From contig JAHLWR010000033.1 of the NCBI GenBank assembly GCA_019057815.1, positions 1-28,567 of the forward strand: a stretch of 28,567 nucleotides of DNA, read 5' to 3'. Under the pieces are notes generated by a model. The model was not told the origin of the DNA, did no database searches, and saw only the letters and a list, made by a program, of their open reading frames with translations. Position numbers and translations under genes: made by a program. The stretch is from Candidatus Heimdallarchaeota archaeon (lineage in GTDB: Archaea > Asgardarchaeota > Heimdallarchaeia > Heimdallarchaeales > Heimdallarchaeaceae). Positions 2,092-7,598 of this stretch are shown here, piece after piece (the first letter of the stretch is position 1; every line of letters starts with the position of its first letter).

Positions 2092-2422
2092 GGACGAAGC
2101 GAAAGGGCAACTTCGGTTTAATACTGAGGAACTACCTGACTCCTTTGAATCGATGTGAGTGTAAACTCACCACGTGAGAATGTGGCTCTTGGAACAGAAA
2201 CGACACGGCCTATGTCCGATGACAATGAAGTGATGAAGATAATGGTGACATTATTCGAGATAACTTACTGAGAAGGGTATAGGAAACGTTGAAACGGCCA
2301 ATCATCGATGGGAGCAAGCTTGAATAGGGTTCAACTGAACCGGGTAAAGTGCATAGGTGAATGTTGCCAGGAAGGTCCTTGACGGCTTCCTAACAGAATC
2401 AGGGGTACTCTTCGCATCGTCC
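2092..2422 (+). ncRNA. rnpB: RNase P RNA, archaeal type A
   Basis: P1 GGACGA.GCGAA/TTCGC.TCGTCC; P2 GGCAAC/GTTGCC; CR-I GAGGAA..CCTGA pairing with CR-V ACAGAA-TCAGG; P5 CTCC/GGAG; P7 ATCGATG/CATCGAT; P8 GTGAGT..ACTCAC; CR-II ACAGAAAC; CR-III TGAAAC; P19 AGGAAG/CTTCCT. Confidence 0.93.
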
Positions 2423-2575: not shown

Positions 2576-4372
2576 ATGCTCAAGTTTCCATTTAATAAAT
2601 GGATATCTTTAGTGGTTATTAGTATAGTTGTTACTATGCTTACAACTGGGAGTCAATTATATATAGCGGCACATCAGAATCCTCAAACATCAGGAAATAC
2701 TCTCTCTTCTACATATGAATTTGCAAATGCAACGTTTACTTTCGAACTTGAGAAACTGAATGTAACCCGAGGAGAAGATGATCTCATTATTACTTTTGGA
2801 TTTAAATTCACAAATGAAACATTAATTCCTGATGCAACAATTGATTATAATATAACAAACCCTTTAGGGGTAATAATCTATCATAAATCTATACTTGTTA
2901 CCACAAATGAAACCTTTAATGAAACTGTTGAGTGGGATACTTTTAATAGTGAACCAGAGGGAGTTTATAACGTCACAGCAGTAGCCAATAGTACTGCTAC
3001 TGGATTCTCTTCTCAAGCATTAGAGGTGTTTAATTTAATTATCCTTCCTGTAGGAAGAATACGAATGAGTTTTCCGAACAATCCATTTTATATTGAGTCT
3101 AATGAATCAACTAATATCCCTTTCACATTAACAAATATTGGAGGAACAAATGTAACAGATATAAATATTAATGGATACAATGTGTTTGAGTCAACAATTG
3201 AGGATTTTGATATATTCACGCCTCTATTTTCCAATTTAACGATAGCAAGTGATGAAGTGTACGAAAATAACATAATTTTTATCGCTGATGGCTATTTGTA
3301 CAAAAGACTAAGTTTGAATCTGCAATATTATACAATAGATGAACCTGAGAAAATAAAATTCACATCCAGCCCTCCTCTTGAAATTATTTACCTACCAGAT
3401 CTTGTTATTCACAATTATCAAATTCCTGAAAATGCTACACTAGGTGAGGAATATCGAATTACATTTAATCTCACAAATGGGGAGGAAGAGGTTTTATATA
3501 TTGATGCATATGCAGAAAGTGAATTAATTGAGTTTGAAGATTATGAAACGATAGGGGCCATACCTGTAAGTAGCGGTTATAACCAATTCTCCATCATTGG
3601 GATACCCCATACAGAGGGAACCGATGCAATATGGTTCTGGATTGAGATTGAATGGAGATACGGGGAAAGCGTAATTCATTCAACTCCGATATTATATACT
3701 GTGATTAGCTTTGTCAATGTTATGAATTTGACAGTAGTAACCACAATTGAAACAACAATAGTAACAACAAATGAAACAATTGGTTTCTTCGACCCAGTTG
3801 TAACTTATGCAACCATCCTTACTTCTCTCTTGCTAGGTATAGGTTACTTTTCTCGAGACGTAATTAGAGGTATCGCAACCAAAACAAAATTCAGAAAGCA
3901 AGAACACTCTTTTGCAGAGATTACTTACCCCTATGATACAGTAATTTTAGATGGTAGCAATATTGCTTGGGAAGAGAAAAACGCAGATAATAAACCTAAA
4001 TTGAACAATATCGAAATTATGATAAATAAATTGAGTAGAGCTAATTTCAAGAAAATTATTACTGTTGCTGATGCAGCACTTAGATATCAGATAGATGATC
4101 AGAAAAAACTTGACAGATTAGTAAAAGAAGGAGCAATCAAAATGCTTCCAGCCCGTGTAGATGGCGACAAATTTATTCTAAGATTAGCAGAAGAAGAAGA
4201 TGGCATGATTATAAGTAATGACATGTTTAAAGAATTCAGAGAGCAAGCTCCATGGATAGATGAGCGAAGAATACCATACACAATATTGACTAGTGAAGTA
4301 TGGTTGCACCCTACAAGTGTTTCACCTACACCAAAGGAAAAAAATGATGAGACATTAGCTTTCGATAGCTAG
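2576..4372 (+). CDS. Single-pass membrane protein: signal/anchor, beta-rich sequon-rich ectodomain, TM helix, cytoplasmic Zc3h12a(Regnase)/NYN-type PIN-like ribonuclease
   Basis: N-terminal hydrophobic helix; 15 N-x-S/T sequons in about 370 aa; Thr-rich stalk; TM PVVTYATILTSLLLGIGYFS followed by basic residues; C-terminal VILDGSNIAW...ADAALRY...DGDKFIL...IISNDMFKE. Confidence 0.85.
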   Translation: MLKFPFNKWISLVVISIVVTMLTTGSQLYIAAHQNPQTSGNTLSSTYEFANATFTFELEKLNVTRGEDDLIITFGFKFTNETLIPDATIDYNITNPLGVIIYHKSILVTTNETFNETVEWDTFNSEPEGVYNVTAVANSTATGFSSQALEVFNLIILPVGRIRMSFPNNPFYIESNESTNIPFTLTNIGGTNVTDININGYNVFESTIEDFDIFTPLFSNLTIASDEVYENNIIFIADGYLYKRLSLNLQYYTIDEPEKIKFTSSPPLEIIYLPDLVIHNYQIPENATLGEEYRITFNLTNGEEEVLYIDAYAESELIEFEDYETIGAIPVSSGYNQFSIIGIPHTEGTDAIWFWIEIEWRYGESVIHSTPILYTVISFVNVMNLTVVTTIETTIVTTNETIGFFDPVVTYATILTSLLLGIGYFSRDVIRGIATKTKFRKQEHSFAEITYPYDTVILDGSNIAWEEKNADNKPKLNNIEIMINKLSRANFKKIITVADAALRYQIDDQKKLDRLVKEGAIKMLPARVDGDKFILRLAEEEDGMIISNDMFKEFREQAPWIDERRIPYTILTSEVWLHPTSVSPTPKEKNDETLAFDS

Positions 4373-4458
4373 CTCTTAGATAATTATACTTCAAAATAGG
4401 AAGAATCTGTCACAACCTAGTCATTATAAAGGTAAAATTCTTATTAGGGTAGACGACA

Positions 4459-5160
4459 ATGAAAAGGGAACAGTGGTACAAAGATTTTCATGTAAATACG
4501 ATACCCCAATTAGAGGATGTTCCAAGAGATTATTTCTATAATCTAGACTATAATTATCTTACTTTGCAAGAAGTACAATTGTTGTTAACCTTAACTGATT
4601 CTCAAACAGCTTATTCTTTCTCAGGATTACGCAAATCCACGTCTCTTCATCAATACCAACTGACAAAAGCGATAAAGAGATTAGTAGATAGAGATCTAGT
4701 AATTAAAAACGAAATAAGAACTTACGAGCTTACGGAAGAAGGAAGTAATTTTACAAGAAAATTATTACAAGATTTACTTCAGAAAAAAGTTATCAATATA
4801 ACTGACATCTATTTCCATTCACAACGCAAAAATTTGAAACTTATACCTTCTTTAGACCAAAATACAATTATTAGCAATTTCGAGAAACGATGGTTTTTAA
4901 AATACAGATTCGTTTATAGAAAAGTGGAAAATTATGATATTGTATTGTGCTGGGAAGATAATGAAAAGAATCAAGTGCATATGTTTGTGGATTCAAAAGG
5001 AAATATAAGTGTGGAATTCAGATCCTTAAAACCAAACAATTCAGAATTAAATATTGTTTTGAGTTGGATAAATAAGGAACTCACTGAACAGTATGGAGTA
5101 AATACGGTAACGAACACAGAGCAAAATAAAGAAGATTATAATAGCGTTTTATATAATTGA
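4459..5160 (+). CDS. MarR-like winged-helix protein with an unknown C-terminal domain and C-terminal LYN (HbYX)
   Basis: LTLQEVQLLLTL...SFSGLRKSTSLHQYQLTKAIKRLVDRDLVIK...YELTEEG is a classic wHTH pattern; the protein ends ...DYNSVLYN. Confidence 0.75.
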   Translation: MKREQWYKDFHVNTIPQLEDVPRDYFYNLDYNYLTLQEVQLLLTLTDSQTAYSFSGLRKSTSLHQYQLTKAIKRLVDRDLVIKNEIRTYELTEEGSNFTRKLLQDLLQKKVINITDIYFHSQRKNLKLIPSLDQNTIISNFEKRWFLKYRFVYRKVENYDIVLCWEDNEKNQVHMFVDSKGNISVEFRSLKPNNSELNIVLSWINKELTEQYGVNTVTNTEQNKEDYNSVLYN

Positions 5161-5220
5161 CGCAGTTATCTAAAACACTGTTAAATCACTAAAACAAAAA
5201 AATAATGAGGAATTTGAAGT

Positions 5221-5883
5221 ATGAATAATATGAATTTAAATAATATGCAAAATGGTCCCGTGATAGAAGCTAAACATGGTACCACAACTGTAGCATTAAG
5301 ATTCAAAGACGGAGTAGTAGTCGCTGCAGATAAAAGAGCTTCAATGGGAACATTTATAGCTTCTAAGAAGACAGAAAAAATTCATGATTTAAACAAGTAC
5401 ACAATCGCAACTATAGCAGGCTTAGTATCCGATGCTCAATACTTGGTAAATCTTACAAAAGCTAATATTAACTTGTACGAACTTGGTAGAGGATATCCAC
5501 CTACAACAAAAATGATAGGAAATCTACTGGCTTCAGTAATGTATGAACAATATCGTGCATATTTCCCATATTATGTATCTATGTTAGCATGTGGCTTAGA
5601 TAAAGAAGGACCACATGTATTTACACTTGATATGGCTGGAGGAATTACTGATGAAGATTTTGCTTCAACAGGATCAGGATCTATGATTGCATACGGTGTT
5701 TTAGACTCTACATGGAAAGAAGATTTGACAAAAGATGCAGCATTAAAAATAGGACTAACCGCATTGAAAACAGCTATAAGTAGAGACACTGCAACTGGTG
5801 ACGGAATGGATGTGGCTGTTGTAGATAAGAAAGGTATAAAAAGACTGACTGCTGAACAAGTGAAAGCAGTTTTGGAGGAATAA
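5221..5883 (+). CDS. psmB: 20S proteasome beta subunit, catalytically intact
   Basis: 20-aa propeptide ending HG|TTTVAL (Thr1), AADKRAS (Asp17), KKTEKI (Lys33), AGLVSD, GSGS, RDTATGDG. Confidence 0.96.
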   Translation: MNNMNLNNMQNGPVIEAKHGTTTVALRFKDGVVVAADKRASMGTFIASKKTEKIHDLNKYTIATIAGLVSDAQYLVNLTKANINLYELGRGYPPTTKMIGNLLASVMYEQYRAYFPYYVSMLACGLDKEGPHVFTLDMAGGITDEDFASTGSGSMIAYGVLDSTWKEDLTKDAALKIGLTALKTAISRDTATGDGMDVAVVDKKGIKRLTAEQVKAVLEE

Positions 5884-5885
5884 AG

Positions 5886-6542
5886 ATGTTAGGACCACAA
5901 TCTATGGGATATGATAGGACATCAATTATGTATTCACCAGAAGGTCGAATAATTCAAACAGAATATGCAAGAGAGTCTGTGCGAAGAGGAAGCATTGCTA
6001 TAGGCATAAAAAGTAAGAAAGGTGTTGTTTTAGCAGGACTTCTCCGTGTAGTTGATTTAAACGAACCTGACAAGAAAATACATAAAATCTCCGAAAACAT
6101 ACACGCAATCTTTGCAGGAGTTGCTGCTGACGGTAGAATTCTAATCAGTCGATCTCGTCTTGAAGCTGAAATATTTCGTCTAACCTATGGTACACAAATT
6201 GATATTGTAGGTTTAGCAATAAAAACAGGTGATTATGTTCAACTCTTTACCCAACAAGGCGGTTTACGACCATTTGGTGTAGGTATTCTCTTTGGAGGAT
6301 TAGATGATACTGGACCTTGTTTGCAATTTGTAGATCCTGGTGGCAGTGTTGCCAGCTGTAAAGCAAAAGCAATGGGTGAAGGTGACTCAGAAGCTATCGC
6401 ATTCTTAAAAGAAAAATACAAAGATGAACTCACAATTGATGAATTGGTTGAGATTGCAAAAGAAGCTATTAGAAAGGCAGCTCGAGATGCTGAAGTAGAC
6501 GAAGCAAATATTGCAATAGAAATTATACCTTACAAAGGATAG
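5886..6542 (+). CDS. psmA: 20S proteasome alpha subunit, short and divergent
   Basis: GYDR...YSPEGRIIQTEYA, GSIAIGIK, KKIHKI, GVAADGRIL, TQQGGLRPFGV, DPGGS. Starts 2 nt after the psmB stop. Confidence 0.94.
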   Translation: MLGPQSMGYDRTSIMYSPEGRIIQTEYARESVRRGSIAIGIKSKKGVVLAGLLRVVDLNEPDKKIHKISENIHAIFAGVAADGRILISRSRLEAEIFRLTYGTQIDIVGLAIKTGDYVQLFTQQGGLRPFGVGILFGGLDDTGPCLQFVDPGGSVASCKAKAMGEGDSEAIAFLKEKYKDELTIDELVEIAKEAIRKAARDAEVDEANIAIEIIPYKG

Positions 6543-6563: not shown

Positions 6564-7598
6564 TTGAAGTTTGTGGATGATATGAGGATTTCTTTTTCTA
6601 GAGGAATAAAAATTGCAACTGATAGCTGGAAACTTGGGTGTGACATAACAAACTCTCAATATTTCCCTTTAGTATTCTATAGCCACGCTCATTCAGATCA
6701 TATTCCCCGTAAGATCCCTAAAACTAATATTGTTTGTTCGTCAATTACACGTATATTGGTTGAAAATTTAGTCTCTAACTTTGAAGATGGGAAGTTCCAT
6801 GATTTGTACTCAATAGGAGATACAACATTTTCACAAATACCAAGTGGTCACATAATAGGATCTACAGCATTAATCATAGATTCTCCTGAAAGTAAGGTAA
6901 TATACACAGGAGACGTATCTATAAGAAACAAAGGTTTTATTGAACCGTTCAAACCTGAAAAGTGTGATAAGCTCATTATTGAAAGTACGTTTGGATCTCC
7001 AAAATACATTTTTCCACATTATGATGAAGTAATAAAAGAAACGCAAGAACAGATTCAGAAATATTTAGAAGAAGGAGTTCCTGTAGTTTTAATGGGATAT
7101 GCCCTAGGTAAGTCACAGATGCTATATCACGCTTTTTCGCATCTATCGGATAATATCATTCTCCATGAATCTAATGCAAAAATCAACACTCTTTTAGCTG
7201 AGAAAAAAGTCGATGGAGCGATTGAAGCAACTACATATCAAGATGCAAAAAGTGAAGGCTTACTAGAAAAAACAAACGATTGGATTTTCTTTACACCACT
7301 TCGATCAGGAAGAAATGAGTTTCATTCATCTCTAAAAAATAAGTTTAACACAAAATTATTTGCTTTCAGTGGGTGGGCTATTTCTCCTAACTACAAGTAT
7401 CAAATGGCTGTTGACCACGCTATTCCAATATCAGATCACGCAGATTTCTCTGAGTTAATTGAAATCTGTGAGAAATGTAATCCACGAGAGATTTACACGG
7501 TTTATGGACCAAAAATACAACTAGCTGCTGAATTACGAAAAAGGGGATTCAAAGCAACTCCTTTAAGTAAGCAGACTTTGCTTGAATCATTTTTCTAA
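6564..7598 (+). CDS. Metallo-beta-lactamase/beta-CASP nuclease (SNM1/Apollo-like size) with C-terminal PIP box
   Basis: SHAHSDH, SGHIIGS, YTGD, ESTFG, GKSQ, SDHAD motifs; C-terminus QTLLESFF. True start may be ATG 6582. Confidence 0.88.
   Translation: MKFVDDMRISFSRGIKIATDSWKLGCDITNSQYFPLVFYSHAHSDHIPRKIPKTNIVCSSITRILVENLVSNFEDGKFHDLYSIGDTTFSQIPSGHIIGSTALIIDSPESKVIYTGDVSIRNKGFIEPFKPEKCDKLIIESTFGSPKYIFPHYDEVIKETQEQIQKYLEEGVPVVLMGYALGKSQMLYHAFSHLSDNIILHESNAKINTLLAEKKVDGAIEATTYQDAKSEGLLEKTNDWIFFTPLRSGRNEFHSSLKNKFNTKLFAFSGWAISPNYKYQMAVDHAIPISDHADFSELIEICEKCNPREIYTVYGPKIQLAAELRKRGFKATPLSKQTLLESFF

Follow-up and report, generated by a model that had tools for sequence, protein, structure and literature searches.

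A housekeeping 20S proteasome operon of Heimdallarchaeaceae with a probable winged-helix regulator gene behind a rare promoter-like element

Four neighbouring genes of an Asgard archaeon, encoding a membrane-bound ribonuclease, a winged helix-turn-helix (wHTH) protein and the two subunits of a 20S proteasome (psmB and psmA), raise the question of whether they work together as a module. The genes lie in a stretch of 28,567 nucleotides from Candidatus Heimdallarchaeota archaeon (assembly GCA_019057815.1, contig JAHLWR010000033.1, positions 1 to 28,567, forward strand), which we call the window. A first-pass annotation had proposed that the ribonuclease, named NYN here after its catalytic domain, responds to a signal from the envelope or from outside the cell and forms a stress or abortive-defence circuit together with the wHTH protein and the proteasome. 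Our analysis favours another explanation, to which we give a probability of about 0.72: psmB and psmA are a housekeeping 20S operon with an attached wHTH regulator gene behind a rare promoter element, and the NYN gene and an RNase P RNA gene are syntenic neighbours, with no share in a proteasome-linked signalling or defence module.

The source genome belongs to the Heimdallarchaeaceae, which are among the closest archaeal relatives of eukaryotes. Its nearest named relatives are "Candidatus Heimdallarchaeota archaeon 8H_bin2", AB_125 and Ca. Heimdallarchaeum aukensis, and its alpha subunit is 95% identical to that of 8H_bin2. We compared the locus across 41 genomes of the order Heimdallarchaeales (four families, 13 genera) and across a phylum sample of 121 genomes. 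Families are written f1 (Heimdallarchaeaceae) and f2-f4 (the other families of the order), genera g1-g5, and loci carry L-numbers. The features in question are as follows.

2576..4372, + strand: NYN membrane protein gene (P0001); PF11977 domain, topology from the AlphaFold2 (AF2) model
4419..4431, + strand: rare promoter element AGTCATTATAAAG, an AGTCATT core abutting a TATA box
4459..5160, + strand: wHTH gene (P0002); MarR-like fold in an AF2 model with a predicted local distance difference test (pLDDT) score of 84.6
5176..5213, + strand: internal promoter-like element with a GAGG Shine-Dalgarno sequence, ahead of psmB; motif conserved in f1 loci
5221..5883, + strand: psmB (P0003), 20S beta subunit, predicted active; PF00227, E 6e-55
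5886..6542, + strand: psmA (P0004), 20S alpha subunit; PF00227 plus PF10584
6554..6560, + strand: oligo-T tract (T7), putative transcription termination signal from the sequence

The four co-oriented open reading frames (ORFs), their intergenic gaps of 86, 60 and 2 bp and the T7 tract past psmA were all found where the first-pass annotation had placed them.

The proteasome subunits were examined for their catalytic and gating residues. The psmB product has the proteasome fold and reads ...KHG/TTTVALRFKDGVVVAAD(17)K...EK(33)I, where the slash is the Gly/Thr1 cut site; Thr1 behind this Gly-Thr propeptide cut, Asp17 and Lys33 are all in place, and activity of the beta subunit, as had been annotated, is thus predicted from its sequence. 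It scored 203.9 bits against the NCBIfam equivalog TIGR03634, under the cut-off of 224, and because it is the sole beta subunit in the genome this low score is read as lineage divergence. The psmA product matched PF00227 (E 2e-44) and the N-terminal signature PF10584 (E 2e-7), and its G8, Y9, D10 and R11 (the YDR gate) and K64 (the pocket Lys, equivalent to Lys66) were invariant in 15 orthologues. The protein is short, at 218 aa, with an NCBIfam match that stops at model position 210 of 230, and it fell below the cut-offs of TIGR03633 (194.5 vs 287.35) and NF003075 (209.6 vs 219). The alpha subunit is therefore divergent, as the earlier reading had it, with gate and pocket Lys retained. In its predicted homo-heptameric rings, Thr1-type beta subunit, YDR gate and pocket Lys, this 20S resembles those encoded by actinobacterial prcBA and archaeal psmA and psmB; unlike known archaeal 20S particles, both its subunits score below the equivalog cut-offs and its alpha subunit lacks about 20-30 C-terminal residues.

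We then asked how many such genes the cell carries. The source genome, 95.4% complete, contains exactly two PF00227 genes, and tblastn searches of it with both subunits gave no further match below E = 2. Exactly one alpha and one beta gene were present in 37 of the 41 genomes of the order, and in 36 of these 37 the two were adjacent, beta then alpha; the exception (G038), with psmA and psmB on different contigs, is a fragmented, 63%-complete assembly. This order thus has two proteasome-family genes, against 3-6 in most other Asgard lineages of the phylum sample. A sister family in the same class as the Heimdallarchaeales has three. Since the genome has no proteasome-family genes besides psmB and psmA, and the order has one of each, the pair is the housekeeping core particle and the sole 20S of the cell, not a special copy. 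The dedicated 20S paralogue on which the module proposal relied was not found: the count is one psmA and one psmB, with no second alpha/beta pair, an outcome that the proposal itself had named as speaking against it.

The psmB-psmA gap measures 0-4 bp in f1 and 6-38 bp in f2-f4, and psmA is followed by a run of T5-T9 in 22 of 23 f1 loci and by T4 in L043. Judged from this spacing, psmB and psmA appear to be a tightly coupled operon whose beta-then-alpha order is conserved across the whole order. The annotation's statement that psmA and psmB mostly occupy separate loci in archaea agrees with the literature: according to PMC4919917 (citing Koonin 2001 and Gil 2007), psmA in most archaea lies alongside exosome and RNase P protein genes, with psmB elsewhere. 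Given this usual separation, the psmB-psmA fusion into one operon is a lineage trait of the Heimdallarchaeales, which unlike most archaea keep both genes together across the order in a minimal set of one alpha and one beta. The actinobacterial prcBA genes are a similar beta-alpha operon, in which the beta gene is directly followed by the alpha gene in a single unit. We found no paper on Heimdall proteasome gene order in the literature searched. A minimal, single-operon 20S with one alpha and one beta, set against 3-6 genes elsewhere in Asgard archaea, bears on the origin of eukaryotic subunit diversity.

Upstream of this pair, the sequence points to a shared promoter. The element AGTCATTATAAAG lies 40 nt ahead of the start codon of wHTH; genera g1 and g3 have (A)GTCATTATAWAG at 30-40 nt before the wHTH start, and the g2 locus L080 carries the variant GTTATTATAAAG upstream of wHTH. 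The same AGTCATT+TATA element is found directly before psmB in g2, g4, g5, f2, f3 and f4, where wHTH is not directly ahead of psmB, and in most Heimdallarchaeaceae the wHTH gene stands between the element and psmB. The GTCATTATAWAG form has two copies in the 3.7 Mb genome. The form AGTCATTWWWWA has 22 copies vs about 59 expected, about 10 of them intergenic and more than half within genes; being rarer than expected and largely intragenic, it was rejected as a generic promoter consensus of the lineage. The element also occurs at C12:96101-96112 (-), 48 nt before the gene of a PAC2-family (PbaA/B-like) chaperone at C12:95324-96064 (PAC2_a; locus L087:1441-2181:-), whose product ends in GMFV, and it is conserved before the orthologues of this gene in g1, g3 and four f3 genomes.

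A second element lies between wHTH and psmB, reading cactgTTAAATcac in the window and cactAAATATTTAAAc in relatives, and comprises another TATA-like motif and the GAGG Shine-Dalgarno sequence. The spacer that holds it measures about 52-65 bp throughout the f1 loci and never contains more than four Ts in a row. A sigma-70 promoter scan returned 26 sites vs 26.6 expected, and an intrinsic-terminator scan returned none; both are uninformative for an archaeon. From these motifs we infer one transcription unit of wHTH, psmB and psmA with an internal promoter. Transcription would start at the AGTCATT+TATA element and run through wHTH, psmB and psmA, the internal promoter in the 60-bp spacer would reinforce psmBA transcription, and the transcript would end at the T7 tract after psmA. 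The wHTH protein would be a regulator tied to proteasome expression, which either regulates the proteasome or is regulated with it, and its selected C-terminal tail, described below, would serve as a docking or degradation signal. Among the other genes of the neighbourhood, only wHTH appears to be really linked to psmBA, as indicated by its conserved tail and by the shared architecture of the putative transcription unit.

The AF2 model of P0002 shows two domains (predicted template modelling score, pTM, 0.80): a wHTH domain at about residues 19-111 and an alpha/beta domain at 118-221, followed by a disordered acidic tail. The wHTH domain superposes on MarR proteins with VIA Z 10-11.6 and a root-mean-square deviation of 1.5-2.4 over 81-89 residues. 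Residues 118-221 are a putative dimerisation domain in this model, the best PDB match being the N-terminal dimerisation domain of spermine synthase (Z 10.6); no named relative of this C-terminal domain was obtained, as the feature search of the ESM Atlas yielded nothing usable and no PAC/Pba-type fold was among the PDB matches listed. P0002 scored under the Pfam gathering thresholds of MarR_2 (19.3 vs 27) and HTH_45 (19.7 vs 25.5), its ESM Atlas neighbours carry PF01047, and its two-domain architecture is common among uncharacterised archaeal MarR-like regulators.

The description of a wHTH protein ending in LYN was correct, since the MarR-like fold is followed by a C-terminal L-Y-N. Among 25 Heimdallarchaeaceae orthologues, the window included, Tyr occupied position -2 in 25/25 and Asn position -1 in 24/25, with positions -3 to -12 variable. 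The endings were LYN (2), TYN (10), SYN (3), PYN (7) and VYN (2), with MYI in the g2 orthologue. We considered whether Tyr-Asn might be a constraint on the DNA, the codons TTA TAT AAT forming a TATA-like motif about 65 bp before psmB, and rejected this: Tyr is encoded by TAT or TAC and Asn by AAT or AAC, both kinds occurring among orthologues, and the motif has survived inversion of the wHTH gene (L059), a distance of 243 bp (L058) and loss of linkage (L080). Because synonymous codons change and the motif is independent of gene position, the tail is under selection at the protein level.

The LYN ending of the window fits the HbYX pattern [LVIMGAPFYW][FY]x (PMC3493965), and 12 of the 25 orthologues fit it strictly, the other 13 having Thr or Ser at -3. 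The published pattern has a background of about 4% (PMC3493965), and 4.1% of the long ORFs of this genome carry it, against 0.12% for a YN ending. Known partners of the proteasome in the source genome end in GFI (PAN), GFV and GFT (Cdc48) and MFV, GYT and KYK (PAC2 proteins). PAN and both Cdc48 proteins (C12:22349-23428, C38:274637-276205, C43:160868-162439) end in Gly-Phe-x, with Phe replacing the canonical penultimate Tyr. Like the HbYX partners (PAN, Cdc48, AMA, PbaB/PAC2 and Blm10/PA200), the wHTH protein has a flexible tail with an invariant penultimate Tyr, and it is encoded beside the 20S genes. Unlike them, it has neither an ATPase nor a PAC2 fold, its -3 residue is often Thr or Ser, and Asn is fixed at its last position; the homologues from f2-f4 differ further by ending in hydrophobic-Ala-small (FAA, FAG, YAG, LAS, IAA). 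The literature searched held no paper on wHTH proteins bearing an HbYX-like tail.

The wider wHTH family was sampled by a profile search, which gave 307 hits in all. Among 149 of the best 150 representatives, the penultimate residue was Ala in 39, Asn in 22 and Tyr in 18, and the last was mostly N, S, A or G. The endings (L061-L074, P0028-P0176) recur as hydrophobic-Ala-(Ala/Gly/Ser), x-Asn-Asn and x-Tyr-x. As conserved endings recur in this way, the C-terminus is important throughout the family, and what reads it may be something other than the proteasome. The hydrophobic-Ala-(Ala/Gly/Ser) endings are similar to the LAA end of the bacterial ssrA degron, and PAN is known to recognise the ssrA degron on model substrates. 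Read in this light, the endings may act as a C-terminal degron or docking signal throughout the family.

We also predicted a complex of three alpha copies with wHTH residues 118-233. The prediction weakly supports docking on the alpha ring, with a score of 0.44 against 0.03 for the best of three controls, and gives no interface; its runs agreed in at least 56% of contacts, with partner pLDDT at least 71. Of 80 solved complexes 58 passed the mark used, as did 2 of 110 mismatched pairs, a calibration that is only rough here since own alignments were used, and the score of 0.44 falls in the range up to 0.60, in which 7 of those 80 solved complexes and both mismatches passed.

The NYN gene and the RNA gene before it were analysed in the same way. 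The latter is as follows.

2095..2419, + strand: RNase P RNA gene, archaeal type (Rfam RF00373), outside the proteasome unit

Residues 454-574 of P0001 are a Zc3h12a-type NYN domain (PF11977, E 6e-19, 68.7 bits vs a gathering threshold of 23), with ZC3H12C/B/A as PDB relatives (E 6e-7 to 1e-4) and KHNYN also matched. In the AF2 model (pLDDT 76), an N-terminal helix is followed by three beta-sandwich domains (52-155, 162-272 and 276-383), a disordered Thr-rich stalk, a transmembrane helix (407-437) and the cytoplasmic NYN domain. The ectodomain is similar to generic Ig-like arrays and holds all 15 of the 15 N-x-S/T sequons, and the whole protein contains no Cys. The catalytic residues D459, N462, D531, S547, N548 and D549 were invariant in 21 sequences, column identity was 87% in the NYN domain vs 53% in the ectodomain, and the domain is single-copy within the Heimdallarchaeaceae. 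The model thus describes P0001 as a single-pass membrane protein with a glycosylation-rich ectodomain and a predicted cytoplasmic NYN endoribonuclease domain, which supports the earlier assignment of a membrane receptor-like Regnase/NYN RNase.

P0001 shares the PF11977 domain with Regnase-1/ZC3H12 and KHNYN, with the Asp, Asn, Asp and Ser-Asn-Asp residues conserved. Unlike these proteins it has neither a CCCH zinc finger nor a KH domain, a Pfam scan of P0001 giving no zinc-finger family after the NYN domain, and its NYN domain is the cytoplasmic tail of a membrane protein. To IRE1 and RNase L it is alike in architecture only, as it lacks a kinase or KEN domain. The NYN domain belongs to the PRORP/Zc3h12a PIN-like group, together with proteinaceous RNase P, and the archaeal members have no known function (PMC5499597). 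We found no paper on membrane-anchored NYN RNases in archaea in the literature searched. The RNase P RNA (149.5 bits vs a gathering score of 84) ends 157 bp upstream of the NYN gene, and the two were adjacent in all six Heimdallarchaeaceae loci tested (L036, L037, L047, L058, L059, L080); the pair persists on a g2 contig without psmBA. A pairing beyond the Heimdallarchaeaceae was rejected, as the RNA was not found beside eight NYN homologues in f3 and f4.

Conservation of the neighbourhood was then compared across the order. The order NYN-wHTH-psmB-psmA is kept in the Heimdallarchaeaceae, with short gaps and co-orientation in most members. However, at least 12 genes are colinear in this family, from an upstream aminotransferase through genes 8 kb downstream, and NYN keeps its place no more consistently than 8 or more unrelated flanking genes do; its linkage thus amounts to nothing beyond general synteny. 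Genus g2 has the locus divided, with RNase P RNA, NYN and wHTH together on a contig and psmBA on another, where the 2 kb upstream of psmBA contains other ORFs and a tRNA, and Ca. H. aukensis carries the wHTH gene in inverted orientation. The NYN homologues of f3 and f4, of which a genome often has several, and the wHTH homologues of these families are on other contigs than psmBA, and none of the neighbours from the window locus stands beside them. Linkage of NYN to psmBA was thus seen within the Heimdallarchaeaceae, apart from the split in g2, and in a divergent arrangement in one f2 genome, and it failed in f3 and f4, where the genes are unlinked.

Several observations weigh against the explanation of a housekeeping operon with an attached regulator and mere neighbours. 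In the single f2 genome (locus L074, G025:C183), the only case of linkage outside the Heimdallarchaeaceae, NYN and psmB are divergently oriented and psmA is directly followed by a wHTH homologue with the ending IAA, and this re-association in a new order and orientation hints at more than inertia. The NYN-wHTH spacer of the window has no run of more than two Ts, and read-through from the NYN gene is possible. The AGTCATT+TATA element is not conserved before PAC2_a in g2, g4, g5 and two f3 genomes, and it is missing before PAN, both Cdc48 genes and the unlinked wHTH homologues of f3 and f4. With the element missing at so many candidate genes, any regulon is small and patchy, and the idea that the element marks an order-wide autoregulated wHTH regulon was left unsupported by the same absences at the f3/f4 homologues, PAN and Cdc48. 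All transcription units, moreover, are predictions from sequence motifs.

Some of these points favour the circuit proposed in the first-pass annotation. Its NYN protein has a receptor-like architecture with an intact catalytic site, the four co-oriented genes with short gaps recur in most Heimdallarchaeaceae, the adjacency of NYN and psmBA appears again, divergently transcribed, in L074, and no oligo-T separates NYN from wHTH in the window. Nevertheless, we consider this circuit very improbable. An envelope-sensing RNase coupled to a dedicated 20S does not agree with a proteasome that is the only one in the cell and the sole housekeeping copy, nor with an NYN gene whose linkage, a matter of family synteny only, is matched by 8 or more unrelated flanking genes and missing in f3/f4, and NYN is set apart from wHTH by a separate, conserved promoter element. 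The abortive-defence version fared no better. PADLOC defence models gave no matches for P0001, P0003, P0004 and P0005, P0002 matched the generic winged-helix model WH_III-A alone (E 3e-6), and no mobile-element or compositional signal was detected in the region. The strong conservation of the single-copy NYN domain is unlike typical defence effectors and would fit a constrained cellular role better. If true, the original proposal would describe a signalling or defence circuit of a new kind; what the evidence shows instead is an ordinary essential proteasome operon with a syntenic neighbour.

A more specific version of the regulator would be a homeostatic loop resembling that of Rpn4, in which the operon-encoded MarR-like wHTH protein binds AGTCATT-type promoters, a PACE-like element, of both wHTH-psmBA and the PAC2 gene, its x-Tyr-Asn tail inserts into the alpha-ring pockets of free 20S, and excess 20S sequesters or degrades it, so that the 20S reads the level of this regulator. 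The penultimate Tyr, invariant under protein-level selection, speaks for such a loop, as do the x-aromatic-x endings of PAN, Cdc48 and the PAC2 proteins and the retention of the pocket Lys and YDR gate in the alpha subunit. The switch of the tail from hydrophobic-Ala-small in f2-f4 to x-Tyr-Asn coincides with the family that has wHTH behind the proteasome element, and the complex prediction described above may point the same way, weakly. However, any last residue would satisfy the HbYX rule, and nearly all orthologues nonetheless have Asn there; Thr or Ser at -3 in over half of them is outside the published pattern (PMC3493965), which itself occurs in 4.1% of the long ORFs of the genome. The other conserved endings of the wider family suggest a common C-terminal reader that is not necessarily the proteasome, and the unlinked wHTH homologues lack the promoter element. 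In addition, the AGTCATT core is non-palindromic, in contrast to usual MarR operators, and lies at the position of the TFB recognition element (BRE), where a variant of transcription factor B (TFB) could be a fair alternative reader. We therefore regard the loop as unlikely, though far less so than the defence or signalling circuit.

The loop would share two traits with Rpn4/PACE, Nrf1/ARE and NAC53/78/PRCE: a short specific cis-element common to the promoters of proteasome subunits and of an assembly chaperone, and, by analogy, a DNA-binding protein, here encoded with psmBA, that the proteasome may read. It would differ from them in having a MarR-like wHTH instead of a C2H2, bZIP or NAC domain, with no homology, and in an element found ahead of only two transcription units. 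Among eukaryotic proteasome feedback loops, according to a 2026 preprint, the logic is conserved and the components are not (bioRxiv 10.64898/2026.09.09.750301). The literature searched described no proteasome-specific cis-element or feedback regulator in archaea, and an archaeal case, if true, would make the origin of the eukaryotic loop logic testable. Another case of winged-helix regulators encoded beside proteasome genes is mycobacterial PafBC, wHTH-WYL proteins of the Pup-proteasome gene cluster that control DNA-damage genes. The wHTH protein of the window differs in its second domain, which is not WYL, and PafBC is not known to dock on the 20S. Under the preferred explanation of a housekeeping operon with an attached regulator as well, a rare element common to the 20S operon and a PAC2 gene, with a tailed regulator encoded between the element and psmB, is worth the attention of specialists.

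One further gene follows the putative terminator of psmA.

6564-7598, + strand: small beta-CASP/metallo-beta-lactamase (MBL) nuclease, 344 aa; best model TIGR04122

Its best score, for the ligase-associated DNA-damage-response exonuclease TIGR04122, was 141.9 bits vs a cut-off of 325. The gene is syntenic in the family except at four loci (L042, L048, L050, L052), where its orientation is reversed and its place has shifted.

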